A stretch of 64,000 nucleotides of DNA from Antedon mediterranea (Eukaryota; Animalia; Echinodermata): positions 4,176,101 to 4,240,100 of the forward strand of contig NC_092677.1 in assembly GCF_964355755.1 (NCBI RefSeq). Direction: 5' to 3'. The notes below the pieces were generated by a model, which searched no databases, was not told the DNA's origin, and worked only from the letters and a program-made list of their open reading frames with translations. Position numbers and translations under genes: made by a program. Shown here piece by piece: positions 16,661-44,742 of the stretch. Positions within the stretch are counted from its first letter, which is position 1, and the number at the start of each line of letters is the position of its first letter.

Positions 16661-17307
16661 ATCTACGAAATAGAATATTGAAATTCTGTGATGTTGGTAT
16701 CATCCTTCCAGCATTGATGCAATCAAGTAATATAGAGGGCTCACTACCTAAATATTGATTCGTCTATTTAGAACCTCTGCTTTATGAGATCAATTTCATA
16801 TTTATTTTTATTCTATCTGAATGAATATTGTACAATAGTAACTTACTCGGGTTGAATGTTCTCTCATGGATGGTCTCAAGCCTAGCCTGGCTTAGTTGGA
16901 TTGGACCCCATTGGAAATAAGTTTACTTTTTATTTGTCGACTTAATGGGTTATCCTAGTATTCTCTTTAATATGTACATTGTATATTTTAACTATTTTTA
17001 TGAATATCGAATAAAATCAATCAATCAAACACCGATAACGAACGAACATCGTACACTAGCTATTAGGCCTAGCCTGGTGTTGTCTAGTTGCTGCATTAAT
17101 TGTCTTTCATCTTTTGGAAGAATGCAAATTGGGGAAGACCCAGTAGTTCGGTTGATACGATGAAATTGATATATTTTAGCAGACAAAAGATACATGAATA
17201 TAATATACAGTTCCATGAAACATTCAGTCTGCAGATTGAAACAATACACAGACTGAAATAAAGGAAAATGGATCTATTTTCTGCTTACGTTTTCATGATC
17301 AATCGTG

Positions 17308-20009
17308 TCAAACTTTATAGAGGTCAAGGTCATCAAGCTGTGTTTCGTCGTTATCTACGTATTCTATTATTACATCCCCACCGTTGAACAGAGGTTCGTC
17401 TTCATGGAGCAGTTTGGTCAGCTTCGCATCCATCGGGAATGTTGAACCAACAACCGGATGGAAAAGTCGGAGTTTCTTAAAGAAGAAAATAAAGATTTTT
17501 TTTTTAAAGCTCTGTCTACACCTATCAAACTTTATGAGACAATCAAAATGTGATGTGCCCATATATGGACATGATGATGTCGCTACCATATTTAAGCATA
17601 TCACTACCATATTTGGGCACATCACACATAGACAGAGCTTTATACAAGCATATACATAAAAAAAACTTGTAGAGCTTAATTAATGGGACACCTTCAGGAT
17701 CCATAGAAGTATCTTCTAAATAGCTGTTAGTCTTAGTGTTATAAACATATTATTGTCACAGGACAGTGTCCCTTTAGATGTCCCCACCCCAAGAAAAAGG
17801 GGTTGTGTTATTACATATATTGTCCCTTGTTTGTTTCAAAGGACAGTTCCCCTTTATTAGCTGCCCCTCTCCCCAAACAAGAAAAGGGTTGAACTTAGTG
17901 CTAAAACTTATATTGTCCCTTAGTTGTTTCATATGACAATATTCTTTTAATAGAGGTGTTTTCCCAACAGGTTCCATTGAGCATGCAATTTCAGATAATA
18001 GGTATTTTTATTTACCTTACTATCTGCTAGATTGTTTTCGTTCCTTAAGCTTGCCATAGTTGCTATTTTGTCCACAAGGCGACCTACACTCCATTCTTTT
18101 GAAAAATACATTGCTTTGCTCTTCTCTTTACACCGATGTTCAATGGGTAAATATACTTGGAAATATAAACGTTCAGTCTAAGTAAAACAAATGCAATAAA
18201 GAGTATTAATAAGATCAATTAATTAATTAATAGAAGGAAATTTAATAAGATTAATTAATAGAGAGAATTCGCTTATATTTTACAGAGCAAATAAAGAGAT
18301 AATTTAATATTTAAAAAAAATTAAATATAATTTTAACTTTTAGTGCTTCATTTGAGGCTTAGGGAGTAGAGTTGAAAGAGTCGTAAGTTACAACCCTGAT
18401 ACTACTGTAGGTCAGGATTGAACCTTGGACCTTGGGATTAGAAGGCAAACATGTTAACAACCAAGCCACAGCTGCACTACCTGAGGAATAGAAGCATCAC
18501 CAACTGCATGCATCTTCATCTTTATGAGGGCCACCTTAGCAGCGGTCTTCTGTGCCTTGCTGCTCAGCTGTTTCTTTGGTTTGGGTGGCTTTGATTTTAT
18601 CGAGTCTGCAGGAGAATGATAAAAATAAATTTAAAAAATAAACATTTACTGTAAGCCTACTGCAATTAAAGCTGGGTTCCTTTTGTTGACCTTTAGCTTT
18701 TACTGTACCTGTTATTTTTTTCACAAGCTCAGCTGTTTTTTGCATTGGTTCTGGCTTTTCTATCAGCATTGCACAGGAATGATCTTGTTGATGTCGATGT
18801 CTGAAAAACAAAATTGAATTGAAAAATTACTTTGTAAATTGTTACGTAGTGATACAGAACATATCTGCTTGAAATAAAAGAACACTTTTTTTTCTTGAAG
18901 TGCCTTTCTTAGACACCAGCAGTGAAAGTGCTACTAAATATGGAGATGATGGTCACTTTCTGGCCAATCATGCCTGTACACCTTACCGAAGGCAGAAGTT
19001 CTTTCTGCAATGTTCACATATAACTTGTGTGGGTACTTTATCCTTGCACTCAGTTAGTTCACATGGATATGATGAGAAAGTTGATGTTGGAGGTTCTGAT
19101 GATACTCCTCCAGTATCTTGAACATCCTATATGGAAAAACAACTATGTATAAGTGAAAAATGAAATTTTTTTTCAGGATATTAATTATATTTTTATTTCA
19201 TGCAACTTACTTGTATGCATTGGTGCAAGGATTTGCTTCGATGATCTTTACTATAATTAAAAATATTGTTTTCATATAAGTTATAACCATATATGATTGC
19301 TGATGAATAAATATAGAATTATAAAAAAAGTACAAACAAATCTATATATAAACTTGTAGGAATAATATTATTAATTGATACTTTCAGTCACACACAAATA
19401 TGACTAATGTCATGTGTAATAATTATGTTAGTCAACACTAGGGCCAGGCCTATACTTATAACATTATACATTAACATTGTGTTTGTTTCCTATTAACTTT
19501 AGACTTTGAAATTGATCGTAGATTTTATTTTTTTAACATACCAAAAGACTTGACAACAGTCCTCACAGTTGAATGGAAGAAAATCTGAATAGAAAAAAAA
19601 AGGATGTGTGTTTGGAATGTAAAATTGATGTTTATTTTTAATTAATTAATGTTTTAATTAGTCTAGAATTAAGTAAATGATAAATGACCAACACAACCAA
19701 CCACAAACAAAAACAAAAGGGCTAGGCCTGTGTCTTGTTTTGGACTCTCATGGAGCAGCCACTCAATCAATCGGCGAAGAAGCCCTGGTGGTACGGTGCG
19801 GGTAAAACAAGTAGGAGGCGGCCTAACCTAGATCGATCTTACGCCGCGAATACGTTTCATTATTATTTTTAGAGTCGTTATTAATTACGTTCATTTCAGC
19901 TCATGTATTAACAAAGGAAATTTAATTTATTCATGTAACTAACTAATAACTAACCAAGTTGATTGCAATTTGGAAAAGAACAGTGTTCGCCGATTTCAAG
20001 TTCAGCCAT
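17308..20009 (-). CDS. ZFAND1: AN1-type zinc finger protein 1 (two AN1 fingers plus C-terminal ubiquitin-like domain), 274 aa, 8 exons
   Basis: Exons 20009-19955, 19584-19542, 19250-19211, 19126-18987, 18800-18709, 18605-18481, 18177-18016, 17475-17308. All introns are GT-AG with compatible phases (825 nt). Translation: MAELEIGEHCSFPNCNQLDFLPFNCEDCCQVFCKDHRSKSLHQC...CEHCRKNFCLRHRHQQDHSC...KTAAKVALIKMKMHAVGDASIPQTERLYFQVYLP...WSVGRLVD...LFNGGDVIIEY. Confidence 0.95.
17508..17639. mobile_element. MITE family A copy in ZFAND1 last intron
   Basis: TIR and internal motif present; lies about 30 bp from the exon 8 acceptor. Confidence 0.85.
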
Positions 20010-20239
20010 CGCGGTTTCTTCGACAGTATGAAACGGAACCTTCACCGTGCTAAAGTTTTCGTTCTGGCCAATCGGATCGTCGGATTGTTGATTTTTTTTC
20101 ACACAATAGGACTTCAGTGGATACAATTTCTCATCCACCATGATTTCGCAAATTGTATGCTTGACTAGTTTCGATAAACAACCGCGTGCCACACAGTGTT
20201 TGTGAATTACTACTTTACTTTTTGATTCATTATTTCATA
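20010..20239. promoter_or_regulatory. Bidirectional promoter/5' UTR region shared by ZFAND1 and PSMG2
   Basis: Divergent ATGs at 20009 (-) and 20240 (+). Locally CpG-rich, with a CCAAT box near 20068. Confidence 0.8.
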
Positions 20240-23200
20240 ATGTTTATTCCATTAAATTCTAGCGATACAAAGTGGTCAGATTTTACATTAGTCTGTGTAC
20301 GTATTCCTGAATTTACAGTCATATATATGCTTTGCATGTTATTATAATGCAGTTTAAATCTAGGCTAAGTAAAGGCTGTAAAAAATATAAGTGGATAGCC
20401 TGTCTGAGAGCATCTGGATACATAGATCCCAAAAGCAAAGACGATCGGGTCCATTTTAGGGCGCTAGTTCCGTTTCGCACCTGTTTTTATTTCGACTTCC
20501 TTTTGACTCCAAATTGTTAAGCAACTTATTGTGAATACCACACATTAAAATTGGGCCTCATAAGTACTTTTATGAAGAAGAATCACATAAAAAGTAACAA
20601 ATAAATCCTTAAATTGATGATTTTACAGACATGTTTCTCGCATACCGTTCGCCGCGAATTTAGCATACTCGAAGTTCAATATTTTCGTTTCTATGGAGCG
20701 CCAAAAGAGCAACAACAATAGATGGTTAAAACCTCAGTGGAATGCGTCTTCTTTTAATGCATTTATTATTGAAATACACGTTTAATTTTAATATATTTTG
20801 TCAATAAAAATGCTGTAACATTTTACTGCTAATAATTTGCTGTTTTCAAATAGCAACCAACCCTAGGCCTAAGAGTAAGACTAAGACTATAAGAGGAATA
20901 TTATTTAGATCAGGTATACCCCTACAGTACATGTAATATGATGATGAATTTGTCGATTTTCATTCCTAAAAGTTCCTGCAAAAACCATGTACAGTATCAA
21001 CAGTAAAATGTTTGTTACATTGACAAAATTGAACGTAATTTTCACCAATAAATGCATTAAATATACGCAATTTACTGAGTTTTTAGCCCTCTATTATGAT
21101 TGCTCTTTTGGCGCTCCATAGAAACAACAACATTGAACATGGAGTATGCTAAATTCACGAACCGATGTGCGGGAAACACGTCTGTAAATTCATCAATTTA
21201 AAGGATTTATTTTTTACTTTTTGTGTGATCTCCTTCGTAAAAGTATTTTTGAGGCCTAATTCTAAGGTGTGGTACTCACGATAAAGTTACTTAACCAATT
21301 TTGAGTCGAAATAAACGACAGGTGCGAAACGGAACTAGGCCTAGCGCCCATTTTAGGCTAATACAAATTATAAAGCATTTTCTGTACACATTAAAGTATG
21401 GGAAAGTTCATAATAATAATAATTCCTTTAGTAACTTCGAAGTTTAGGTTATATCTCTTATTACAAAATATTCACAATAATATTTGGTTATCCGTACTTG
21501 GCGGATAACCCCTTGTTATTGTCAGGATCTTTTTTTTTTTTTAGATTTAGTTTTGTTATTATAAATTTTAAAAAAAAAACAAATTATTTTTTCAATTTTG
21601 TCTAGCCCTGCATTTCTGTAGGTAATGTTGGGCAGCTAGCAACAGATCTTATCATCTCCACTTTAAAGATGGAGCATGTTGGTTATCTTTCTGATTCCAG
21701 TATGCTACCAATGTGCGGCAATGACCCATTTAATACGTCAGGCCTTGTAGAAGGAAAACTGTGCACAACAGCAGAGGGTAAGATATGGTTTGGAGGTTGA
21801 GGTACACCTTACAATGGATTCAAATCGACTTAAGCTCTGTCTACACTAGTGTGATGTGCCCAAAGATGGTAGTGATATGACATCATCATGTCCATATATG
21901 GGCACATCAAATTTTTTTGTCAGATCAAGTTTGATAGTGTAGACAGAGCTTAAGAATTTAACATGATTCCAGATTTTTAATTACAAAATAAATAAACAAT
22001 ACGGTTTAAGAAATATTGTTGGTATTCAAAACTTAAAACTACATACACATCCATTTGAAAAAATTCCTATCAAAATCTTTTCCTTTATTATTTTTCCTTT
22101 AGTATACCAAAGTGATGAGAAAAAATTACTGGTGGTACAGTTGCGTGCCTTGCTGGTGAAGGTGTGTTAAGCTCTGTCTACACTATCAAACTAATCTGAT
22201 GTGCCCAAATATGGTAGTGATATGACATAATCATGTCCAAATATGGACACATCAATTTTTTTGACAAAAGTTTGATTTGTGTAGAAAGAGCATTATTATT
22301 TATCTTTCATTAAACATTAATGACTTTAAATGACTATTTTTCTGAAATACCATTCATACGTAAACATCGCAGTTGAAAAAAATATTTTCACCTCGGAATA
22401 GGCGAATGCAGAAGGGGAGAAGGGAGATACCAGTTTCCACCCAACTAATCTAAAAAATATATAATGTACTGCTTTATGATTTGAATAAGCTGTATGTTTT
22501 TATCTTTATTAGGGTAAACACAGCCAGTTCAGAAAGAAGTTACTTGACTGGATCAAACGGAGTAACTTTAGTCGAGTGATTCTTCTAACAAGCAGTTTCG
22601 CATATGAAAGAATAGATTCACAAATCACAGGGTATATCTGAGCTACTTATTAAATTTGTCATGATACCTCTGGTATAATCCGACCCCCTAGAACACAAAA
22701 TTGGGCCGACTGTGAAGGTGGGACTATACCTGGTTTAGGGAAGAAATTGATTGGTAAGCATTTCTTGTAAAAACCTTATTTGAACTGGCTAGATATAAGC
22801 CTACATCCAGATCAAAAGTCAATACTAGGACTATACCTGGGGATACTGTGAAATCAGACATAAAGTAGAGGGTGGGATTAGACTCTAGTGGGATTATACC
22901 TGAGGATATACGTTATTACTACAATAAAGAGGAAGATACATCAATCGTCATCAAAAAAATGTTCATTCATGTTGAAACCCCACTATCTACACACAATAAT
23001 ATCCCTACTTTTATTCTACTCACAGATCACCTCTGCGATATCTTACAACACCAATGCTAGAAAAACATCCAAATTCACCAACAAAATGCGGCTTGGGGCA
23101 TTGGAAACAACTTGAGAGGCGGGATTTTGTGTGGTCACCAGAACCAGAAGGGACATCAATACCTGAAGCTGCCAAAGGTGTTTACATACCAGGTGGAGGT

Positions 23201-27887: not shown

Positions 27888-30800
27888 TTACATATTCCTA
27901 ACTCGCTCCTCTAAAGCATTCAACTGGTTAGCAATCTCTTCTGGTAAGTCCCTATTTACTTGTTCATCAAAATATGTACGGATTGATTGTACTTCCTTTT
28001 CCCAGAATTCCTTTGGCAAATCGAAGATTGCATCCATATCTACTGGCTCGAGATTGTCCGTATTTATACTGCCCTTCGTTGGCACAAGACCGATCGGGGT
28101 TTTCTTGGAATTGTCTTCTCCGTCAACTCTACGGCAGATCCAATCGAGCACTCGTGAGTTTTCACCGAATCCAGGCCAGAGGAATTTTCCTTCTGAACTC
28201 TTGCGGAACCAGTTGACGTGGAATATTTTTGGTAATTTTGCGCCCTGATGGTTTTCCATACTCAGCCAGTGGCCCAAATAATCACCAAAATTATAACCAA
28301 AGAATGGTCTCATTGCAAATGGATCATGCATTATTACTTTACCTAGAAAAATAAAAAACCAAATAATTTTTTTATTTACTTATTAAATATACATGTTATA
28401 TTAAATAATTTGTTAAAAAAATTCTACAATAAATAAGGTAAAAAATAGCAATCTTTTGATACGCCACTAAAATAAGCAGCTATTGAGTCAGTCTAACAGT
28501 CGTTCGGTGCATGCTCATATGTTTCTGAGCGTTCACAATGACCTTTGTACTCAATAGCTACATATACAGGAACAGCAATAGATAGAATCATCAAAAAACA
28601 GATTACAATATTTCTAAAAACATAAACAATAATGTAAAAATCAATTAAACATTTCAGAAAAAATGTTTTTACTTAAAAAAAATATCTTTTTTAAGAAGAA
28701 GTAGACCATATTATATAACGCCTAAATAAATTCCTGTCATTTGATTGGACGATTGTTGGTCACATGGCGTGCAATAGTACCATACTTACCAACATGTTCA
28801 GCTGCAGCAGTTGATTCTGATCTCATTGCAGCTCCTACAAATACTCCATGTTTCCAATCAAAAGATTCGTATACTAGGGGAACACCTGAAAGACAATTGT
28901 ACATATTATAGTCGGTTTATATAAAAAAAAAAAACACTAATATACATAGTGTTGTGAAACAATGTTTCAGTTATAAAGCGCCTATGTATTTTAATATGAT
29001 TCCTAAAATCATTCGACAATCTGAAAATGTTATTTCCTTTAAACGTGAACTTAAACAATTTATTTCCAGTTAATATTGTTCGTACTATGTATATATATAT
29101 ATATATATATTTTTTGTTTTTTTCTGTCAACGATTTTAACTTTTATATGAATTTTATATAATCATTGTAAATTTTTAAGCCTTTAATATATTTCATGTCA
29201 TTTTAATATTTAATATTTTATGTGTTGTACTGTATGTTTGTTTTATCGAGGGCCCTGAATGATCAGTTCTATTAGGAACTGGATAGGCTACCCTCAGTAA
29301 ATATGGTAATAAATAAATAAATAAATTTTAATCTATGTACTAATTGTTATTGTCTTTCCAATAGGATGAAATGACCTTCCTAATTTCGAACCCTCCCAAT
29401 TACTTGAAAGGAATACTTTATCAATTGATAACATTTACACAAATCAAGGCAATTTAACAACAGGATGTTGAGATCTGGAGATCAAAGGGTTTATCTGTGG
29501 CTGCGACATGATCAGTTCAACACCCCTGCGCGCCGTGAAAAATATGTATATAGTACTGTAGTGTTAATATTTGTCGCAGCCAGACATAAGATCAAAGGGC
29601 TGTTCTTGTTCCTATTTTGGCAAGGCAAGCTCAGTAGGGTCCTGTTGTGAGATTTCACACTCTTTCCAACCTTACCTTCTGGTCTACGCCCACCAAACAC
29701 AATAGCGTCAATTGGCACTCCTTCAGAGCTCTCCCAGGCTGGGTCCATGGTAGGACATTGGCTGGCTGGGGTGCAGAATCTAGAGTTAGGGTGAGCTGCA
29801 AGGATCTTCTTGCCTGTGTCTGTTAACATGTCCTTATGCCAGTTCTTGTGGTCTAGCCAAGATGTGTATGTAAGGCCCTAAAAAATAATAATTATAAACG
29901 TAATGACCTAAAAGAATAGTTAAAATAATAATTTTTCTTATAAATCTCTATCGTTACATGTAGTGATTGATAAGGTTTTATGAAAGAAGTTATAGTAAAA
30001 AAAAAGTATTATACCCTCTGAAGATCTGTCTACACTATCAAACTAATTTGCAAAAAAAATGTGATGTGCCCATATACAGACATGACGATGTCATATCACT
30101 ACCATATTTGGGCATATCACTACCATATTTGGGCATACTGTATCACTACCATATTTGGGCACATCACACTTTTTTTGGCAAAATTAGTTTGATAATGTAG
30201 ACAGAGCTTTTTGGTATGTTTATATAGCTGGAACTGGTTGCTCCAGACAAATAATTATTTATAGTAAATTTGGCAAAGTAGGAAAATATCTTACACTTGG
30301 TGTTTCATCCTCTAATCCTTCCCACCAGAACCCTCCCTCGGAGGTCTCTGCTACGTTTGTGAAGATTGTGTTTTTCTGAATCGTCAGCATTGCGTTTGGA
30401 TTTGTCTTCATCGACGTTCCTGGAGCAACTCCAAAGAATCCAGCCTCTGGGTTGATAGCACGGAGCTTTCCTTCGCTGTCGAACTTCATCCAAGCGATGT
30501 CATCACCAACGCACTCCACCTTCCAGCCAGGAAGGGTTGGGTTCATCATGGCTAAGTTGGTCTTTCCGCAAGCACTTGGGAAAGCCGCTGCAATGTACTT
30601 CTTCTGCCCTTCAGGATTTGTGATGCCTAAAATCTATATTTAATCAAAAAGTAAAACAATGTCATGTTTTGGTTTTTTTGTCCTCAAGAATGCATATTTA
30701 ATTAATTTAATTTATAAATTGGCTAATACTTAAATTCAATCAAAACAGTAATAGTGTCAAGGTTTTTTTGGTTTTTCCTAAGAAATGTCATAATATAAAT

Positions 30801-33800
30801 TCATAATTGTGTTACTTTTGTGTATCTAATTTGCCCTTGAGGTTGATATACTCAAATCTGTACTATATTATTTATATTTTATTTTTTTTGTTTTGAGGTC
30901 GAGCCTATTCACCACAAGCTTTGATTTCTTTTAGGCTCCTCAACTTTATATTTATATATTTGGAGTGAAATAAATGAAATGAAATGTATTTCAATATGAT
31001 TAAATTATTGGTTTGTAATGGTTTTAATTATTTCATTAAAAAAAAAACAATTTGACTATGAGTGTTAAGTGTAGTCTGTATTCAATTATTAATATGATGA
31101 ATGGATAAATAAGATGCTATTATGTTTTCTAATGGTTTCAATTATTTAATTAAATTTAACAACCATTCTTACCAACATATGTTCGGCTAACCATCCCTCG
31201 TCTTTTGCGATGCGTGACGCAATTCTCAACGCAAAGCACTTCTTGCCGAGTAAAGAATTTCCACCGTATCCGCTACCGAATGAGCAGATTTCCCTTTGGT
31301 CAGGAATGTGAGCGATTAGGGTCTTTGCGGGATTACACGGCCAGTTGTTTACAGGTGGTTCTAAAATAAACAAGTTAAATTAGTTACATTGTATATTTTA
31401 TTAGAATATTACAACAATAGTTTATTTTAAAAAACAGCTTGTATTGTCCATACAGTATACTGTAGTATACACCTGTCTCACCATACATTTTAGATAATGA
31501 AGATTACTGTATAAAACTTTCAAGATAAGAAGAAAAATGTTTCAAAATACTTACTCTCCATTGGAAGAGGTTGTCCCACCGAATGTAAACATTTGACAAA
31601 TTCTCCGTCTCCTAGCGTATCAAGAACTTTACCTCCCATTCGAGTCATAACCCTCATGCTAGCTACAACATAGGGGGAGTCGGTAACCTGGATGCCGATC
31701 TTGGACAGTGGAGACCCGACTGGTCCCATACTGAATGGAATAACGTACATCTTTCTTCCTGGAATAGGTTATAATTTATAATTACAATTGTTTATATCAA
31801 TGGGTTTTTTTTATATAGTGGATTTACAATTGTAACAATCTTTCAAACACAAACTCTATTAACGGGCACATCTTTGGGACCAAAAAGGTGTCTCCTTACT
31901 ACTACTAAGGTTCAGAGAATATGTACATGGTACAGTACTGTTAGTATTTGTTGCAGCCAGACATAAGATCAAAGGACTGTTACGAGTTCCTATCTTGGCA
32001 TGGCGAGCTCATGGTCCTGTATATTGCCTTGGTCCAATGATTCATAATCAGGACTGTATTTGGTCGAATTAATGTTTGTGTACAATCTCGAAGAAATGGA
32101 AAGTTTGCTGTTGCTAATATACAGTACAGTAAGTATAAATACTCTAAATACAGACAGGTTGCTTAGTAGGTCTACTGTATTGTCATCTACGATTTTCAAC
32201 TTAAAATTGAAATTGACAATTTAATAAACTACGGTTGTACCTTTCATACATGCTGGAAAGCGTTCCCTGAAGTCTTGCTGGAGCTCGTTTTGAGATCTCC
32301 ATTGACCCAGAGTTCCTTTAACATCCTCCTTCACAATTGGAATGGTGTCTCGTTTGTTTGGTGTGCATATTACGGTCTTGCTCTCCACTCTGGCTACGTC
32401 CTTTGGGTCAGTCTTTGCAAGCCAGCTAAAAGTTAATAACATTTGCACAATATAATAATATGTTTAAGATTTGTTAAGTGCACATATCCACTAAAGTGCT
32501 CAAGGCGCTGTGGACTAAATGTTACACTTTCAATAACATGCTTCTCCCCTAAGGGTCTTGTCATGTCCTGCAGCCACTTACGGCGCTTACTCTTCTGTCC
32601 ACGACACAGTGGCTGAGTGTAAACTAGTACATAGTTTACTGCAGTGATCGCCTAGTTACTGCAGTAATTGCAGGAGAATAATTTGAATCATGAAGCTCCT
32701 AAGCTGTACACAAGATTTAAAATTGATATGGTTATCCGTTTAGTTGGTAAAAATTTAAATATTGATATTGTGTGTCACACAATAAAAAGGTCTGTTCAGA
32801 CAGCTATAAAAACCATTAAAAATATGATTATTTAACAATATGTTTAACATCTGGTGGTAATGTTAAGTAAATACAGTACACCAATGTGGTTCATATAACA
32901 ATGATGCATCATAATGCTGTACAATATCTTAAACATTGTAGAGTTACTAAGAAATGTACTGTGTACAGCATATTAACATCAATATCTAAAGGAAAAATAC
33001 TGAAAAAATGTAAATGTTGTGGGTACATTCAGTGGCTGGATTTCAATGGAATTCTAATAAAAATTTAAAGATAATATAAGCAAAATCAAAACGATATTAA
33101 AACGGTAATAAATACATACAGTACAGGCAGTAAGAAATTGCAAAGCTTTCGAAAAGCTTCCTAACTTACTGTAATATATACAGTACATAAGTCTTTTTTT
33201 CTAAAGTGATTCAATGTGTGCCAAATGTATTTCTTTTACAAATATTAATCCAAATCTCTATTTACACATGACTTAAATTGTTCAGAAAACAAATCAATAG
33301 GATGGTACAGATTGGTATTTCACAATATAAAAAATTAATGTTCATGACTTGCAGATGTAACTGGAAATTAGAAAATGATTTGCATAACAAAGGCGATCCG
33401 ATGACTACAGTACAACAATACCTGTTTGTTTTATCTCTAGATAGAATTCTACACTTTATAAAAATACTCAAATGGCAAAAACCACAACACAATGCAATTT
33501 AAGTGATGACCATTCTTTAGTACTTAGTAGTAATAATAGATTGTCATGTGACAATGTGGTTTTCACTTCCTTTCATTATCTAACCTTTCAATATTAACCT
33601 ATACTATATTTAAATCTTTTTCTATAATTCCTCTTTAGGGACCATTCAAAAAGTTTTCCTGACAATTTCAATAAAATAAATTAATAAACATGAATAATTA
33701 AGGATTTCAATATTTTAAAAAGATGATTATTTTTTGTTATGTTATTAATAATACTGATTATAGTACTGTACTCTTTGTATTCAAGATAAATTTAACCAAT

Positions 33801-36344
33801 TAAATTTAGACGGAGTCAAATCACAGCAAAAAAACCAAAAAACTTAACTATACTGTATTGTATAAAATCGGCATTTAAATATTATCAGTTATCAAGTTGC
33901 TGGTAGTATATAAGTGTCATTTTATAAAATAATGTGTTTGTACTGTCTAAGTAGTAATACATATCTTTTCTTTTGCTCATCTTTAGAATGATCTGCAACA
34001 TAAAGAAGTGATGACCAATTGGTATTAAAAAAATGTTTTACAAATTATTTTGATACTTTTTGGTTAATATTGACTCGGTTTTTTTAAAAAGAATAGTTTG
34101 TTAGACGCCTTTTGAGCAATGTGCTGGTGAACAGAGTGGAAAAGGAGAGAATGTGATTGGGATGGAAATACTATAGAGAATGAAGACAAGATTGTGACCA
34201 AAGACTGGGTTCACTTGAGAAAAAATGTGCAGCCTTGCGGGCAAAAGAGGATAGGTACACTGTATGTACGAAATGCTAAACGTCACCTATCTTTTGTAGG
34301 GGACCTAGACCGACAGTACATAAATGCTTTGTACTTTAAACAGAGACACTTGACTTTAAAAACTGTCACCCCTGTAAAGCTCTGTCTACACTACCAAACT
34401 ATCATGGACATGATGATGTCATATAACTACCTTACCATATTTGGGCATATCACTACCATATTTGGGCATATCACTACCATATTTGGGCATATCACTACCA
34501 TATTTGGGCATAGCACTACCATATTTGGGCATATCACTACCATATTTGGGCATATCACTACCATATTTGGGCATATCACTACCATATTTGGGCATATTAC
34601 TACCATATTTGGGCATATCACTACCATATTTGGGCATATCACTACCATATTTGGGCATATCACTACCATATTTGGGCATATCACTACCATATTTGTCAAA
34701 CTACTGTAGTGTACGCTACAGTACTTGGCAACTATTCAATTATTAGAATTTATTTAATGTATGTAGTTTGACTGTAAAAACAATGTCCCGGTTTTAATCC
34801 ATACAATTGAAATATTTTACGGACCTTGGACTGGTTGTTTTATCAAGATTACTTCACACATTTTCTGATAACCTGTCGCAGAATTCTTACTAAGTAAATT
34901 TTACCTGGACTAAACAAACAAAACAGTTCAGTAGTTATGCTTTATGAAATAGGTGGGTGGGCCGGCTACACACTCTCAATAACAGGGCAAGGGATTAGTT
35001 ATATTTATTGTACAAGTGTACAGTCAACTCTCACAATACAGGATTCACTGGACACCAGAAACTCTCTTTTAACTAAACTTTTTGGCCTCCAAAATCTGTT
35101 TCACAATAAAAACAGCCTAATTGTGTTCGGTATTGGGAGTGTTAGAACTACCTACTTATGAATCACTGGTCATTACTTGAAACAATGGAGTGATTCAACA
35201 AAACTAAAAAGTATTTAAAAGTGAAAGACAAAGGAGGAACACATTGTCACAATTATGTTAATCTCTGTCTACAATATCAACCTTTATGTAACAAAAAACA
35301 TGATGATGTCATATCACTACCACATTTGGGCACATCAAATTTTTTTTTTTTCAAATTAGTTTGATAGTGTAGATAGAGCTTTACAAGAAGGTATCATGTA
35401 GGCCTTCTGAATGTGATGTGCCCATATATAGACATGGTGATGTCATCACTACCATATTTTGGCACATCACGTTTTTTAGTCAAACTAGTTTGAGTGTAGA
35501 CAGAGCTTTACTGTACTGTAGGAGTGATTAAGAAACTTCAGACAATAAAGGTAGTATGAATATAATATTGCAAAATTAATAACAACACTAAATTACCAAT
35601 TCTCATATTTTGTTAGTCTTTTTATCATGCCTTCTTCTTCCATAAGCTTTAGAAGTTGTTGTTCCTCTTCTTCTGATCCGTCACATATATAAATACTGTC
35701 CGGTTTGCAGAGCTCTGCTTTTTCCAACACATACTCTTTGACGTGAGGTCGTAAGTCATTCACTGTCATCGACGACATGGCTGGATGTGTTGTTACTGTA
35801 AAACGTCTCAACTTTTGAAAACTGTTAAATGATTTGACCACAGAGGTACTTCTCCTAAAAAAAATAAAATTAATACAGTATATAATTGATTATGATTGCT
35901 TATAATAATTTAAAAAAAGTACGTCTGACAGTAGTCCAGACAATTCTTGGCTTATACTAAGACATGCTATTAGTTTGTTTAAAACAACTACAGATTAGAC
36001 CCAGGTAAATATTTTTTTGAAAAAGTAGATTTTCGATTAATTCTGACATTCAACATTAGTCATTACTGTTGTTGGAAATCTAAGAGCACATATTATTAGG
36101 ACTGTATTTCGAAGGCGTATATTTAAACCAACCAAACTGCTATAAATTACTAATATGAATGCGCTCTTTCAAACTGACACGTACGCCTAGGCTAGCCCCT
36201 CCTCCTACACAAACACAACAGGCATTGTTTAGTGTCCAGCAACAACCGGTTGGTTGGACGGTCCCTTCTTTTGAAGAGGCCTAGCTTCAAGATTATTTTT
36301 AACACTTTCACTTACCGTAACAGCTGAAATGTTAATAGTGTCAT
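27888..36344 (-). CDS. PCK2: Phosphoenolpyruvate carboxykinase [GTP], mitochondrial-type precursor, 651 aa, 9 exons
   Basis: Exons 36344-36316, 35854-35597, 32425-32241, 31758-31555, 31360-31173, 30633-30295, 29877-29676, 28885-28790, 28342-27888. GT-AG introns, phases consistent (1956 nt). Contains [60 protein letters not shown] and [10 protein letters not shown]. The N-terminal 35 aa are Arg/Ser/Thr-rich with no acidic residue. Likely co-orthologous to vertebrate PCK1/PCK2. Confidence 0.96.
28950..29325 (+). mobile_element. 5'-truncated CR1/L2-group LINE 3' end in a PEPCK intron
   Basis: 28957-29073 reads [38 protein letters not shown], the typical ORF2 C-terminus pattern, followed by a 3' UTR and (TAAA)n tail. 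Related tails in reverse orientation at about 11810-11870 and 51590-51930. Confidence 0.7.
30022..30208. mobile_element. MITE family A copy (PEPCK intron)
   Basis: Both TIRs and three internal 21-bp units, one interrupted by CTGTA. Confidence 0.85.
34378..34714. mobile_element. MITE family A copy with the internal 21-bp unit expanded to a 12-copy minisatellite (34433-34694)
   Basis: Left TIR, then (TACCATATTTGGGCATATCAC)x12, then a degenerate right TIR. Confidence 0.9.
35261..35507. mobile_element. Two adjacent MITE family A copies (35261-35380; truncated 35410-35507)
   Basis: TIR and internal motif matches. Confidence 0.8.
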
Positions 36345-37560
36345 TTTGAAGCACACTTTTATATACTATTTTAGATCAAATAAATAAGGATTCTATTGCT
36401 AAAAATATACAAAAACTGTCAATTCACTAAGTGACCACAGCATCAAACGGCGCGATCAGCTGGATTGAAGATGACCTAATGCAAAGCCGGCCGGGAGATC
36501 AATCTGCGCAGACTCAAATGTCAATTCACACATAGGAAAATTCCACTCATTTGTGCTAAAAGCAACAAAATATACCAAAAAGGCAAAATTTGCTATTAAC
36601 AACTTATTTCTGATCGGTATATTATTATTATTGATTTATTTTTATGTTTTAATTAATTATTAAATTCAAATTTGATAATTTTATGAATATTAATTTCGGT
36701 TAATTAAAGTAGATCGCCACTAAGTACAGTCTTGTTATCACCCGCGTACTAATATTAAGTATATGTGGAGGTGTGTAATAATTACAGATTTTGATTGGTT
36801 AAATAAGTGGTGTGTGTCGCCGGTGTGGCCATTGCATCATTGTTTTTGACAACAGCTGATCGATGTGGTAAAACGTATAGTAGCCACGAATTATTTTATG
36901 ATTAATACGCAATCAAAACAAATATTCCTCCTATGAAAGCTTTATATTAAATCTACTACATTAACGTATATAAAAAACCACGATATAAAGATAAATGATG
37001 TATTTTAGTCCTAGCCCACTGTTAAGAAAAAAAAAATTAGGATCGCGTTTTCTTTCTGTTTCAGGTAGGTGGGTGTTTGTAAATAACTAAGCTATGCCTA
37101 CTGAGTAGTATTCGGACACTGATGTATACTAAATACAATATTTATGGAAAAACTCCACAGTTCTTTTCAGAATTAATATACGTGGTGACGGCAAACTTTA
37201 TATCAACATATCAATATATATTTATCATAATATCAAACTCATAGGCCTATCAAGATAACTTAGTTACTACATATTATCTACTATATCTTCGTGATTTATA
37301 TTATGTATAATAATGGATTTAACAAGAAAAAAAACCAATTGATTTATATTCGTAATCAATAAAGCATGATAGTTTTATTTATCTGTGCTTGTAATACTAG
37401 AAAATTCAACTTTAAAATGAATCACATCACTAATAGTTATCCTCGTCGACATTTTCGTCAGCTATTTAAATTATATTTTGTTATCTAACTGTTTCGTTAT
37501 CATTGCTATTATTGATAATGATCTACAATTAGAAAACCGGAATTAAAAACGTGTACTTAC

Positions 37561-37592
37561 CTTAGTGAGGATATGACGAGAACTACGGACAT
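37561..37592 (-). CDS. Putative alternative first exon (1b) of PEPCK: MSVVLVISSL(R)
   Basis: Perfect donor AAG|GTAAGT at 37561/37560. The ATG at 37592 gives 32 nt, phase 2, in frame with PEPCK exon 2. TATAA at 37637 and an Inr-like TCACTT (+1 about 37609) lie at canonical spacing. Confidence 0.6.
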
Positions 37593-38430: not shown

Positions 38431-39579
38431 AAATAATTCTTTACAAAACGGGCCGGGTAGGGGACCAAGGAGGGGGAGGGGTGGTGTGTGGGTTTGGGTG
38501 GAGCGGGTTGCTGCATGGTTCACGTTTCCTGCGATCCTGGTATTTATGTAACACGTACATAATCTATCTTATAATGTACAGGTAATCAAATGCAGTAGTG
38601 AAGTCGTATGGCCACAAATGATTTAATATTGAATGTTTGCTTCATTAAAAAAGCTGTATTATTAAAAACACTATTATTTCTTTGTTTATTATAAATATTA
38701 ACATTAATAATAAACATTTATTGTGGTAAATGATGGCAATATCGGCTACTTTCTTCTTTCTTTCTTTTATTTACCCAAAATAAATTATAAGCATGGTAAA
38801 CATATAAAACCAAATCATATCGTGGGAACAAAAATAGTAAAAACTAATCAAATTTAATATTTGGAAATCTTAGGCTTTAGTTAGTTATAGAAAATTTGAC
38901 AGGGTTGGTTTTTTTTTCCAAGGTAGAAATACGAAACGACCCGCGAATATTAATGGAACTTAACCCTCTAAACTCTCTCAATTATTAAAAAAAATAAGAA
39001 GCTATGTAACTAATGTATTGGTCAAATAAGGATTTTGTACCATTTGACTAGTGGGTCACAAGAGGCAAATTAGCCTATGTAATTTTTATACCCACACACA
39101 ATAAGTTTCAAGTTTCAATGAAATGTTTTGGTAAACACAAAATGCATCGATTATCATGATCGACAGAGCAGCCATATATATGGCTCTGGTTATCGAAACG
39201 TCATAGCTCCCTCTATAGTTGATAACTAATTATGCAAATTTCGATGTAGCTAGCAAAAAAAAATTATTATTAAAAAAATTATTTTAAAGTTATTTTACGT
39301 AAAAAATACAACAGGATACACTAAACAGTACCTTTTATTTACGTGGATTATTAATCTTGATAACATTGAAATTATGTAATATGTTGTATTACGGAATTTC
39401 CAATGACACTGGAAATTCTAGATACACGACAGCAGCCGACATGTTGACAACAGATACTTAAAACAATTAAAACTTGTATTAATACATGTAGTGCAACACT
39501 TAATATTGATAATTAATGTGCAAGTTTAAATAAATATAAATATCAATATTAATGTTAGTGCAATAATTAAATTAAATAA

Positions 39580-39955
39580 AATTAATTAAAAATTTGCTTT
39601 AAATTAAAATTCTATCCCATAGTTGGCTTATACTTAAAAATTAATTAAACAATTTTCTTTAAAATAAAATTCTATCCCATAGTTGGCTTATATTTAAAAA
39701 TTAATTAAAAATTTTCTTTAAATTAAAATTCTATCCCATAGTTGGCTTATACTTAAAAATTAATTAAACAATTTTCTTTAAATTAAAATGCTATCCCATA
39801 GTTGGCTTATATTTAAAAATTAATTAAACATTTTCTTTAGCCTAAATTAAAATGCTATCCCATAGTTGGCTTATATTTAAAAATTAATTAAAAATTTTCT
39901 TTAAAGTAAAATTCTATCCCATAATTGGCTTATATTTAAAAATCAATTAAAAATT
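39580..39955. repeat. AT-rich tandem repeat, about 59-60 bp unit, 6 copies
   Basis: Core CTATCCCATAGTTGGCTTATA recurs every 59-64 bp. Confidence 0.92.
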
Positions 39956-40916
39956 GATTTTAATTTATTTCTTGATTATTTAAGAGGCCAATATGACGTC
40001 ATGTGGCGATACGAAATTTTCTCAAAATTGTCATAATATAGCTTTCTTTCTTTTATTTCGAATTTGTTTTTTGATCTGGAAGTTCATCATATTCCCACTG
40101 TGCTTTCCTATCTTTTGTTTAACTGTTTGTTGAAAGGAAATTGTACAGTAGCAGTATAATGTATTGTTATTCAGTGACATTTATCAAATTTGTATTTTAA
40201 TTACTTATTAATATATTTTATTAATCCTCCGTATTTATTGATGATCTTTTATTTATTTCTATTGTTTGTAAATTACACAAACGAAGTCATTATTTGGTCT
40301 CACGCCAAAAATTAATTATTTAAATTTATAATTAAATTAGAGGTGTTATATATTTATATATACACATTTATTCACGAGACTGGTGTATACAGCACAACTG
40401 TTGTTTTTACACAAGTTCGTGATGATATATGTAAAACTAATCGTTGGAAACGCTCTACCATCCCATAACATTATTGATAGAATGAATGAAGCTTCTCAAA
40501 CTAAAACTTTGTAGGTTTGCAACATTAATAATAATGAACGAAGTAATGAATACCACATGCCTTGGTTTATGACTGAATCTGGGTCTTTTGGCATTTTAAT
40601 AATTTTAACAACTTTTATAGCTATTTTTAATAACTAATTTTAACTAATTTAATAGTTAATAATTCATTCATAATAACATTTATTTCTTATCTTTCAAAGT
40701 AAACGAAATAACAATTTAAATATAAATAATTCAGAGGCAAAACCCAGAAAGTAATAAAATTTGGAAAAAATAGTGATAATTAATAAAACACTATATAAAT
40801 ACAAAAAAAAGAAAGAAACATTTTAAAAGAAAATTACAGCAAAATCCCTTCCGCTATTTAGTACCACCGGTATAAATAAAAACAAGTTAAAGACAAATAA
40901 AAAATCTTTTAAACGC

Positions 40917-42224
40917 TCAAAAAGGATTATTTAAAATTGCTAAGAACCTTGATTCTGAAAGTGTGGAACCTCTTTTGGAAATGGCAACACATTTACAGCG
41001 GTCAACCTCCTTGATGAGGTCAAGAAGTGATCGTTCTTTTTCTTCAGAACCGTCACATCTATCAATGCTGTATGGTCTGCAGATCTCAGCCATCTCCATG
41101 ACGTCTTTGACGCCAGGTGTAAAGTTATTCTCTTTCATCTCAGCCATTGCGGGGTGTGTTGTGTTTGTAAAGCCTCTCTTTCCCGTCATCACAGCCATTG
41201 CGGGATGTGTTGGCAATGTAAAACCTCTCTTTCCCGTCATCACAGCCATTGCGGGATGTGTTGTGTTTGTAAAACCTCTTTTTCCAGTCATGGTAGCCTT
41301 TGCTGGATGTGTTGTGTTTGTAAAACCTCTCTTTCCAGTCATGGTAGCCAATGCGGGATGTGTTGTGTTTGTAAAACCTCTCTTTCCCATCATCACAGCC
41401 ATTGCTGGATGTGTTGTGTTTGTAAAACCTCTCTTTCCCGTCATGGTAGCCATTGCTGGATGTGTTGTGTTTGTAAAACCTCTCTTTCCAGTCATGGTAG
41501 CCATTGGGGGATGTGTTGTGTTTGTAAAACCTCTCTTTCCAGTCATGGTAGCCATTGCTGGATGTGTTGTGTTTGTAAAACTTCTCTTTCCAGTCATGGT
41601 AGCCATTGCTGGATGTGTTGTGTTTGTAAAACCCCTCTTTCCTGTCATCACAGCCATTGCTGGATGTGTTTTGTTTGTAAAACCTCTCTTTCCCGTCATC
41701 ACAGCCATTGCTGGATGTGTTGTGTTTGTAAAACCTCTCTTTCCCGTCATCATAGCCATTGCGGGATGTGTTGTGTTTGTAAAACCTCTCAACTGTTGAA
41801 CATTGTTGAATGTTTTGACCACAGAGGTACTTCTAAAAAACAAATAATAAATGCGATTCCGGTAAAATTAGGCGCTAACGTTAATTATTGACAATTGAAA
41901 CCAGTCAACGACCTCAATTAAGAGGACGATTGAAAGAAAAGCTCTGTCTACACTATCAAACTTTATTTGAAAAAAAAAGTGATTTGCCCATATTAGACAT
42001 GATAATGTCATCACTATTTGGGCATATCACTACCTCATTTGGGCAGATCACTACCATATTTGGGCAGATCACACTTTATTTTTGTCAAACTAATTTGATA
42101 GTGTAGACACTACAATAATTAATACACAAGTAGAGCTTCAGAACAAAAAGTAATGGAAGTCAAAAATTCTAATCGTGCTTGACTGCCATAGCACTTGTAC
42201 TTACCGCAACAGTCGAAGTGCCAT
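40917..42224 (-). CDS. PEPCK-derived two-exon gene: duplicated exons 1-2 with a 17-aa repeat expansion, predicted 311 aa, no catalytic domain
   Basis: Exon 1 42224-42205 (MALRLLR, donor CG|GTAAGT) aligns with PEPCK exon 1 and its 5' UTR. Exon 2 41832-40917 (acceptor TTTTAG) aligns with PEPCK exon 2 (STSVVK.FN..Q.LR.FT.TTHPAM ... VK..V.E.AE.C.P.SI..CDGSEE). Phases join, the ORF is intact to TGA, and a minus-strand AATAAA lies at about 40686-40681. Could alternatively be a pseudogene. Confidence 0.7.
41136..41789 (-). repeat. Coding 51-bp tandem repeat, 12 full plus 1 partial unit (RGFTNTTHPAMA[V/T/M]MTGK)
   Basis: Directly visible; no indels among units. Confidence 0.97.
41940..42109. mobile_element. 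MITE family A copy in the intron of the PEPCK-derived gene
   Basis: TIRs and internal motif present. Confidence 0.8.
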
Positions 42225-43635
42225 TTTCAAGAACACGTTATCGTATGTAAAACAATGAATCCCCTGGAATGCAGAAATTACCACCAAAGTGTCACGTCCA
42301 AAATCAGTAAATGACACGATTTAAAATATAAACAATTAAGAATAATTTATCATATATTATAATTGACGTCACAATAGTTGCCGACAATATAATTTGTTTA
42401 TAATTCTATTCACGTTTTTAATTTAGGAAGTTCGTAAGATTTCTTTAGATTCATTGGTTAAACTCGTTGTTTTGTATTCAAATTGTATCATTGTACGTAA
42501 ACAAAATTTAAACCAACCAACTAAATTTCACTTGTACCTTGTTGTTTAAATGAGAATAAATAATATCGTATCGTATCGTAAAATGATAGGTGTGGAAACA
42601 GGGATTACTTTGATCATCATAAGGTCTCCCTCTATGGGCTATTTGTACCTTCGTATAAAGCATATTGTTAAATTATCTGTGAAATGTAAATAAACAAGAA
42701 ATATTTCTTACAAAAAACGCCGCTCGACATTTTAAAATGAATCATTGTTCTTTTGATTAATTTATGATTAATTATTAAAGATGTCCTTTAATCGCAAAGA
42801 TACATACAAATCACAGATAGTTAATTGTATACACAGCATTTGTAAGACATGTGTACCTTTCCAACAATGTATTATTTGCTAAAAAATATTACTACTAATT
42901 AAAAAATGGCATTTAAAAATGGTCAATTTTTAACTTTAATGTGTTGTAGGCTGTTTGTGTGTGAGTTCGACCTGTACTGTAGGCATGCAACTGAATACCC
43001 TCACGAGACAACGTGACTTCACGGTGGTACACAAGTGAGAAATTTCTTCCAGTCTGTTGATTCGCGTCAACCAATCAAAGGGCGAGAATCCAAAATCGTT
43101 CAATCGTGAGCCCTCATAGACTCTCTTTTCCTAGACGTTTTTTTTTTGGGTCCAGCAGCTGGGACCTATAAATTATAGTCGAGTTTACAAATTCGCAAAA
43201 CTGTCGGCCTTAGATACTAAGGATACCGCTATGAAACAGCTGATTAATGAATATGTCCTCTTGGGACATAGCTGGCTAGAGCCGCGGCGCGAACAAAACA
43301 CATACGCATCTACATTTCACTGGGTTTAAATGTCCACGTAATACAGTAGTGACGCATCATGCCGCGATGGATTTAATAACGTAACGTACGTTTGTGTTAG
43401 GCCTACGACACTATAGGATACTGCATTTCAGGTATTGAAAAATCGATTGATCACACTCAATTGTTAGTATATAGTGCCTTCTATGTATCTGGTTACGGAA
43501 CCTGGGATGTAAAGCACTGTGCTGGTTGTGCTTTAAACTTGGTTCTTCTCACACGCAATTAATTTCACTTCATTCATATACGATTAAACTGATCCGAATC
43601 TATCCGAATTACACATCCAACGTCCGTCGTAGTCA

Positions 43636-44742
43636 TAAACTCCGATATAACTCCGATGTATTCCTACCTCCGATATAACTCCGATTTATTCCTCCGATGT
43701 ATTCCTCCGATATAACTCCGATGTATTCCTCCGATATAACTCCGATGTATTCCTCCGATATAACTCCGATGTATTCCTCCGATATAACTCCGATGTATTC
43801 CTCCGATATAACTCCGATGTATTCCTCCGATATAACTCCGATGTATTCCTCCGATATAACTCCGATGTATTCCTCCAATATAACTCCGATGTATTCCTCC
43901 GATATAACTCCGATGTATTCCTCCGATATAACTTTGATGTATTCCTCCGATATAACTCCGATGTATTCCTACGATATAACTCCGATGTATTCCTCCGATA
44001 TAACTCCGATGTATTCCTACCTCCGATATAACTCCGATGTATTCCTCCGATATAACTCCGATGTATTCCTCCGATATAACTCCGATGTATTCCTCCAATA
44101 TAACTCCGATGTATTCCTCCGATATAACTCCGATGTATTCCTCCGATATAACTCCGATGTATTCCTCCGATATAACTCCGATGTATTCCTCCGATATAAC
44201 TTCGATGTATTCCTCCGATATAACTCCGATGTATTCCTCCGATATAACTCCGATGTATTCCTCCGATATAACTCCGATGTATTCCTCCAATATAACTCCG
44301 ATGTATTCCTCCGATATAACTCCGATGTATTCCTCCGATATAACTCCGATGTATTCCTCCGATATAACTCCGATGTATTCCTCCGATATAACTCCGATGT
44401 ATTCCTCCAATATAACTCCGATGTATTCCTCCGATATAACTCCGATGTATTCCTACCTCCGATATAACTCCGATATATTCCTCCGATATAACTCCGATGT
44501 ATTCCTCCGATATAACTCCGATGTATTCCTCCGATATAACTCCGATGTATTCCTCCGATATAACTCCGATGTATTCCTCCGATATAACTCCGATGTATTC
44601 CTACCTCCGATATAACTCCGATGTATTCCTCCGATATAACTCCGATGTATTCCTACCTCCGATATAACTCCGATGTATTCCTCCGATATAACTCCGATGT
44701 ATTCCTTCGATATAACTCCGATATATTCTTCGATATAACTCC
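43636..44742. repeat. 24-bp minisatellite, about 45 copies (CTCCGATATAACTCCGATGTATTC), occasional +CTAC variants
   Basis: Highly homogeneous tandem array without spacers. Confidence 0.97.

Follow-up and report, generated by a model that had tools for sequence, protein, structure and literature searches.

The window, by which is meant the whole 64,000-nucleotide stretch analysed, carries on its minus strand the PEPCK gene of the feather star Antedon mediterranea (27888–37592) and, upstream of it on the same strand, a partial duplicate of that gene with an internal amplification and a recruited 3′ end (Table 1). All exons of the intact gene, hereafter the parent, were located by tblastn, and its exon 2 is 100% identical to RefSeq XP_071957603.1 over the 85-aa exon. 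Both alternative first exons of the parent lead into one common presequence-like stretch, and its product is presumably imported into mitochondria. RefSeq labels the parent "cytosolic-like", and in-frame Met codons situated directly after the predicted MIP cut could initiate a cytosolic form (cf. Prx V).

Table 1. Features of the partial PEPCK copy, its flanks and the parent gene (window positions).
Feature	Position	Strand	Basis or frequency
CCAAT box, a common motif	42453..42457	-	143 in window
Palindromic CRE-type site TGACGTCA, ~55 nt upstream of putative start	42364..42371	-	6 in window vs 0.56 expected
TCATTT, presumably an Initiator-like motif, aligned with parent TCACTT (36429-36434); likely start region	42309..42314	-	
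Copy exon 1: 5′ UTR and MALRLLR (CDS 42224-42205), with 9-nt deletion relative to parent and no in-frame ATG upstream	42205..42312	-	run X1 coverage
Phase-2 GT-AG intron of copy, 372 nt, alignable with parent intron at its ends only	41833..42204	-	
MITE-like dispersed repeat within copy's intron	41938..42109	.	
Start of copy exon 2, remainder of presequence-like N-terminus	41790..41832	-	
Array of 51 nt x 12.9	41135..41790	-	
Final repeat unit and what is left of the PEPCK N-domain's initial ~35 residues (57% identity to P0003 26-83), without Pfam match	41007..41177	-	
Recruited non-homologous tail (~29 codons) and TGA stop; parent's exon-2 donor missing	40917..41006	-	
AATAAA within dispersed repeat (~40660-40765), candidate polyA signal	40679..40684	-	268 in window
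Parent alternative first coding exon, isoform X1 (MSVVLVISSLR)	37561..37592	-	
Parent exon 1, isoform X2, from which copy's exon 1 derives	36316..36344	-	
Parent exon 2, from which copy's exon 2 derives	35597..35854	-	
Remaining exons of intact parent	27888..32424	-	tblastn

Several repeats lie in and around the two loci. A very abundant MITE-like element of ~150–180 nt occurs in the copy's intron, at 30021–30203, 34433–34695 and 35255–35511, and in about ten more places; its internal 21-nt unit is expanded to 12.5 copies at 34433–34695, and its summed depth in the DNA runs is tens of thousands of times the baseline. An AT-rich tandem array (59 nt × 6.3, 39578–39955) is located between copy and parent, possibly near the duplication breakpoint. 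Minus-strand exon fragments at window positions ~17300–20250 resemble what we take to be an AN1-type zinc-finger gene.

The copy comprises PEPCK exon 1, the ends of its intron and most of exon 2. Its ATG lies at 42224 and that of the parent at 36344, 5,880 nt downstream, which bears out a preliminary description of the sequence in which exon 1, the 5′ UTR, the splice sites and exon 2 were said to be duplicated about 6 kb upstream. The coding sequence (42224–42205 and 41832–40917; 936 nt when spliced) specifies a predicted product of 311 residues plus a stop, with a mass of 33.9 kDa and a pI of 11.1, and the intron is bounded by the donor GTAAGT and the acceptor TTTTTAG. Copy and parent DNA align by blastn with 80% identity over 110 nt (E 8e-21) and 72% over 159 nt (E 1e-17). 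Likeness of the 5′ UTRs is weak when taken alone (score 49, with shuffled sequences reaching 54 for a 22-kb target), and adjoins the aligned exon without a break. Indels between copy and parent amount to 9 nt in exon 1, 3 nt at the acceptor and 3 nt at KEYV/KD-V. All of these, together with the steps of n × 51 nt in the repeat, are real and keep the frame, as first described.

Homology of the copy to the parent protein (P0003) is confined by tblastn to residues 6–40 and 26–83. It ends within exon 2, ahead of the exon-2 donor, and no duplicate of the later exons (3 onward) was found in the window by tblastn at E ≤ 1. Pfam detects PEPCK_N in the parent exon and no PEPCK family in the copy (P0001) at E ≤ 1, its one match to the copy being weak and unrelated (E 0.016). 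Membership of the GTP-dependent PEPCKs is defined by PEPCK_N plus PEPCK_GTP domains, and on that definition the copy falls outside the family. These results support the view that the copy is non-enzymatic and stops before any catalytic residue. Within the window, no match was found to the ~29-codon tail, and neither the distal first exon of the parent (37561–37592) nor its promoters were found to have a homologue in the region upstream of the copy.

An assembly artefact was considered and ruled out, as the unique parts of the copy are covered by DNA contigs from three runs of one sample and by contigs of a second sample. Judged by DNA depth, the copy is single, with its unique contigs at baseline. 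The longer paralogue is the ancestral one: PEPCK of the outgroup Anneissia matches the parent over its full length and in its first ten residues. The feature is real, and is probably a young gene of putative function.

The array has a period of 51 nt, 91% matches and 0% indels, and encodes a 17-aa unit, RGFTNTTHPAMA(V/T)MTGK, that aligns with parent codons 26–42. These codons hold a predicted site of presequence cleavage. Precursors cleaved first by MPP and then by MIP are described as sharing the R-10 consensus R-X↓(F/L/I)-X-X-(S/T/G)-X-X-X-X↓ (PMC7996597, PMC8847149). The parent site is an exact R-10 motif (Anneissia has Ala at −5), and the motif recurs in 11 of the 13 units and is lost in the other two. 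The repeat had been described as a presequence-cleavage junction amplified 12–13 times, which these motifs support as a prediction. Two further motifs accompany it, Gly-Lys-Arg at all 12 junctions and N-x-T in 12 of the 13 units. Three of the array's six frames are open, so a long frame across the repeat says nothing in favour of a gene. Changes within the array show a weak bias towards silent sites (pairwise pS 0.155, pN 0.075; 0.68 for distinct variants). All 12 spacings equal 51 nt (0/12 off period), compared with 5/42 off period in an adjacent 24-nt minisatellite at 43692–44742 that was used as a non-coding control. This minisatellite (24 nt × 43) exhibits a strong strand skew, several frames open for 200–304 codons, and 4-nt frame-shifting insertions.

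Divergence of the copy was assessed against both the parent and the outgroup. Over 72 aligned exon-2 codons, 29 of which differ in amino acid, dS is 0.56 and dN 0.25; the ratio of 0.44 (uncorrected pN/pS bootstrap 0.32–0.94) does not demonstrate that the copy is constrained, since constraint acting on the parent halves the value. In an ungapped comparison with PEPCK of Anneissia japonica (76 columns, leaving out the tail and 8 columns with gaps), 40 columns are the same in all three sequences, 22 are changed in the copy only (21 with a better exon-1 alignment), 2 in the parent only and 5 in Anneissia only, and 7 differ throughout. The copy thus shares five states with the Antedon parent and two with Anneissia, from which it most likely arose after the Antedon/Anneissia split, although not recently. 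Simulations fit omega 1 at d 0.15–0.2 or omega 0.5 at d 0.4, and the copy's amino-acid change resembles near-neutral drift, the copy branch being compatible with omega 0.5–1. Constraint on the amino-acid sequence, as earlier proposed, is therefore not upheld: the pairwise ratio is 0.44, yet changes confined to the copy outnumber those confined to the parent by 22 to 2. Nor were synonymous differences accepted as proof of constraint. The seven codon pairs quoted for that argument are real, but at conserved residues they are synonymous by definition.

The claim that the copy is still open fared better. It contains no stop, and given 22–29 amino-acid changes the neutral chance of gaining none while keeping the ATG was 0.04–0.12 by simulation. 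The two deletions that the outgroup places on the copy branch (9 and 3 nt) are both multiples of three, as opposed to 5/45 indels in non-coding repeats. This calibration employed 10 disjoint non-coding repeat pairs (≥120 columns, E ≤ 1e-8, PEPCK pair excluded), which are mostly MITE-like and indel-prone. The joint neutral chance of no stop, a kept ATG and both deletions in frame is ~5e-4 to 1.5e-3, about 1e-3 before ascertainment, with the intact splice sites uncounted and with the statistic inflated by the locus having been picked for its openness. It is quite probable that the reading frame has been kept by selection. Six coding variants were found in two samples, two of them synonymous, four missense, and none a stop or frameshift.

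Five runs cover the stretch, none of them on record as RNA; one, X1, from one study, is guessed to be RNA. An 88-nt contig of run X1 matches 41833–41754 without difference, and its first 8 letters depart from the intron, whereas DNA contigs continue through. The exon 1 contig of the same run ends 6 letters from 42210; inclusive counting puts that end at the donor. X1 contigs representing two haplotypes extend over 40884–41185, through the stop, and end at 40884. Joints and loose ends listed at the intron are filled by the intronic repeat. Run X1 leaves 42307–42495, 43315–43600 and 39970–40379 uncovered and 41866–41928 nearly so, where the DNA runs have coverage; as holes in its contigs prove nothing, these gaps were not used as evidence. 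If run X1 is RNA, the copy is likely to be spliced at acceptor 41832. Of the expressed and spliced 311-aa product first proposed, splicing is made likely by a contig whose match to the genome breaks off precisely at the acceptor, although the 8 letters do not bridge the junction. Expression depends on the guessed nature of the run. Depth over the edge units of the array is ~3× that of the flanks in run X1 and ~10× in the DNA runs of the other sample, a difference that contigs cannot interpret; the number of units may vary between individuals.

The CRE reported at 42364 is present as the palindrome TGACGTCA, and no counterpart of it was found in the parent's proximal promoter. Perfect sites of this kind are ~10 times commoner in the window than expected (38422, 39994 and 42364, as well as 24678, 25224 and 57800), and the first three lie within 4 kb round the two PEPCK-type promoters. 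The CCAAT box and AATAAA are likewise present where described, but both are too frequent to count (143 and 268 in the window), and AATAAA sits in a dispersed repeat with a DNA depth of >100× baseline. Both were dropped as evidence for a gene.

The reading placed first here, tentatively and as something close to an even call, is that of a lineage-restricted partial duplicate of PEPCK, likely spliced and frame-selected, whose product is predicted to enter mitochondria and to be cut into short peptides. The first 25 residues of the copy include 4 basic and 0 acidic ones, the first acidic residue occurs at 238, and there is no hydrophobic core (maximum 9-residue KD 0.59). Its best 18-residue hydrophobic moment is 0.83 versus 1.38 for the parent, so targeting of the copy may be weaker. 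Following import via the inherited basic N-terminus, MPP would cleave at R-G↓F up to 13 times per chain; internal sites within polyproteins are among those described as cut by MPP (PMC8734313). MIP would then remove FTNTTHPA octapeptides, so that peptides of 8 and 9 residues would appear in a burst, and a remnant of ~76 residues starting MAEMKENN would be released, for which AlphaFold2 predicts no fold (pLDDT <50). A single import event would in this manner load the MPP/MIP/PreP pathway with ~12 presequence-like peptides. In yeast, uncleared presequence peptides are described as inhibiting processing (PMC5391191), and as a speculative last step the peptide load might tune the processing of other precursors, including PEPCK. 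The selected property would most likely be a translated, imported, cleavable chain rather than a fold.

An unlikely alternative to this polyprotein is a transcribed relic, in which a truncated duplicate plus a coding minisatellite stayed open by chance, or through an earlier working paralogue, and has no selected protein function. Near-neutral change has reached residues that crinoids and lungfish have in common (PDSI>PYSI, ICDG>RCDG), four of the six coding variants are missense, and the silent bias within the array is weak. Open frames are also cheap in such repeats, three of six being open in the array and 200–304 codons being open in the non-coding 24-nt array 1.5 kb upstream. Furthermore, no orthologue was found: among 1.84 billion representatives there were 69 matches, of ≤46% identity and driven by the period. 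A relic is harder to reconcile with the joint neutral chance given above, which leaves the intact splice sites out of account, and with the absence of remnants of exon 3 or later exons in the copy's vicinity. As the stop lies in the last exon, decay of nonsense transcripts is not expected to be what keeps the frame open.

Rather improbable is the proposal that the repeats form a two-strand β-solenoid with Thr-Asn-Thr ladders, a curli-like or surface-binding scaffold in which the cleavage motif is incidental. Single-sequence AlphaFold2 models a regular coil of 7+5 strands per unit over residues 21–210 (pLDDT ~80–90), whereas a wrong-frame translation of the array scores 46.6, and the Val-to-Asn change and Val/Thr alternation would suit such a fold. 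VIA-align places the model nearest to the ice-binding β-helix 3p4g (Z 22.0, rmsd 2.5, 234 aligned, 3% identity) and to curli CsgA 8c50 (Z 20.2, rmsd 7.9, 223 aligned), but many unrelated β-helices score close behind, and Foldseek returned no match to the model at E ≤ 0.001. The wrong-frame control likewise formed a strand ladder, mean pLDDT exceeds 60 in just one of five models, and every unit bears a Pro and a net positive charge. AlphaFold2 is moreover described as confidently modelling 32 of 78 random perfect repeats as solenoids (PMC11795689). Given this repeat bias and the close-scoring unrelated β-helices, the solenoid stays a rival.

The Gly-Lys-Arg junctions raise a further alternative, which is quite improbable: a new secretory precursor in which convertases cut at Lys-Arg and Gly becomes an amide, releasing 11 copies of the 14-residue amidated peptide GFTNTTHPAMAVMT. 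Gly-Lys-Arg is an amidation/convertase signal of the kind described for calling crinoid peptide precursors (PMC9793003). All 12 junctions of the copy supply the dibasic-bounded peptides with C-terminal Gly by which neuropeptide precursors are recognised; the motif is not in the parent, and its three codons hold 2 silent and 0 replacement variants. N-x-T is also new relative to the parent. Among the 1.84 billion representatives, the top match is an unnamed precursor with multiple GKR-bounded copies at a period of 17 residues and with 7/17 identities in register, and at least 11 GKR occur in 7 of the 69 matches, most of which share the period alone. In a supplement to PMC9793003, TGKRGF is found at junctions of the Anneissia pedal peptide/orcokinin (PP/OK) precursor. 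Entry into the secretory route is the obstacle. No signal peptide is recognised by hydropathy in the copy, which has no upstream in-frame ATG, although an unseen 5′ exon is possible. The 9-nt deletion in exon 1 took out hydrophobic residues, and the parent's more hydrophobic alternative first exon has no homologue upstream. The junction Lys can also be explained as having arisen where the duplicated units join. The copy could act as a peptide precursor only given an unseen 5′ exon, and it is not a member of the PP/OK family.

Very improbable, too, is an action of the locus in cis or as RNA on the downstream PEPCK gene, by transcriptional interference or as a competing RNA, with the protein as a by-product; the shared strand, a distance of 3.3 kb to the distal first exon of the parent, an own CRE-type site and 72–80% DNA identity to the parent's 5′ end would suit it, but it leaves the kept frame unexplained. 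Use of the copy as an alternative 5′ module spliced to PEPCK exon 3, giving a long PEPCK isoform, is scarcely credible: its orientation matches, it is directly upstream and the parent already has two first exons, yet the exon-2 donor is gone, the start of the N-domain is degenerate, X1 contigs pass through the stop, none of the loose ends listed points to a cryptic donor, and the sole longer protein found is the ordinary 651-aa isoform.

Searches for relatives of the copy product gave no homologue among proteins of 167–532 aa and the parent only among longer proteins. The ESM Atlas yielded no usable match, and no such annotated product was found in collections that include the parent's RefSeq isoforms, as far as coding annotation is concerned. 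A search of the literature outside subscription journals found nothing on this locus or on any amplified presequence.

Among known systems, antifreeze glycoprotein genes form a gene family and offer the closest parallel in origin. As described in PMC3449122, the antifreeze glycoprotein of Antarctic notothenioids came from trypsinogen through a partial enzyme-gene duplicate that retained the 5′ UTR, the first exon and intron and a portion of exon 2, after which a short segment close to the beginning of exon 2 was amplified internally to give a repetitive chain. The same account gives it a 9-nt unit, a secretory route and a proven function. The PEPCK copy differs in that its 51-nt unit is a predicted mitochondrial cleavage site, it is single by DNA depth, its 3′ end is recruited and its function is putative. 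Partial duplication with recruitment is also described for fog-2 and Hun (PMC3449122), where, as here, a truncated copy is completed by unrelated adjoining sequence, but two thirds of the PEPCK-copy product is amplified signal and not a retained domain. With respect to processing, Arg5,6 (PMC8734313) is an MPP-processed polyprotein with internal MPP-type sites behind an N-terminal presequence, and Atp25 is another. They are described as releasing folded proteins at one to three sites, whereas the PEPCK copy would release a dozen near-identical peptides plus a small remnant. GTP-dependent PEPCK itself (PF17297, PF00821) is the direct ancestor, with parent residues 1–83 represented in the copy, which has no such Pfam match and no nucleotide- or substrate-binding part.

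The PEPCK copy departs from the known route of partial duplication in having amplified a predicted mitochondrial processing site. Provided that its protein is produced and processed, the locus would be a second clean case of the antifreeze-glycoprotein route, with the donor beside the copy and each step readable, and the amplified piece would be a trafficking/cleavage signal rather than a structural motif. One 51-nt duplication and a few point changes would have converted a presequence to an array resembling a neuropeptide precursor, and multi-copy peptide precursors might arise in this way. It is conceivable, though on balance doubtful, that an address label has become a gene product in this way, with a dozen processing-site peptides per molecule either regulating MPP/MIP/PreP in mitochondria or serving as an amidated signal via Gly-Lys-Arg. 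If the copy is a relic, it serves instead as a warning that a pairwise dN/dS of ~0.45 and a confident AlphaFold2 solenoid can arise without protein function.

Crinoid PP/OK precursors were also compared with the copy. As described in PMC9793003, they have ~12 tandem G-K-R-bounded units with Phe near each N-terminus and the TGKRGF junction, features that the copy shares. The copy differs from them in having no signal peptide, no Asp-X-Leu core and no C-terminal aromatic residue, its unit instead containing His-Pro-Ala and ending in Met-Thr-Gly. Because its DNA descends from PEPCK, any likeness would be convergent, and a PP/OK gene was rejected as the DNA donor of the unit. Four motifs searched for are absent from seven supplement files of PMC9793003, and the available text of that study reports no PP/OK precursor in A. 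mediterranea. The peptide listed there for AmedPCNP4 has the same sequence as the one that comes first in the PP/OK precursors of Florometra and Anneissia, and PCNP4 may be a fragment of the missing A. mediterranea precursor.
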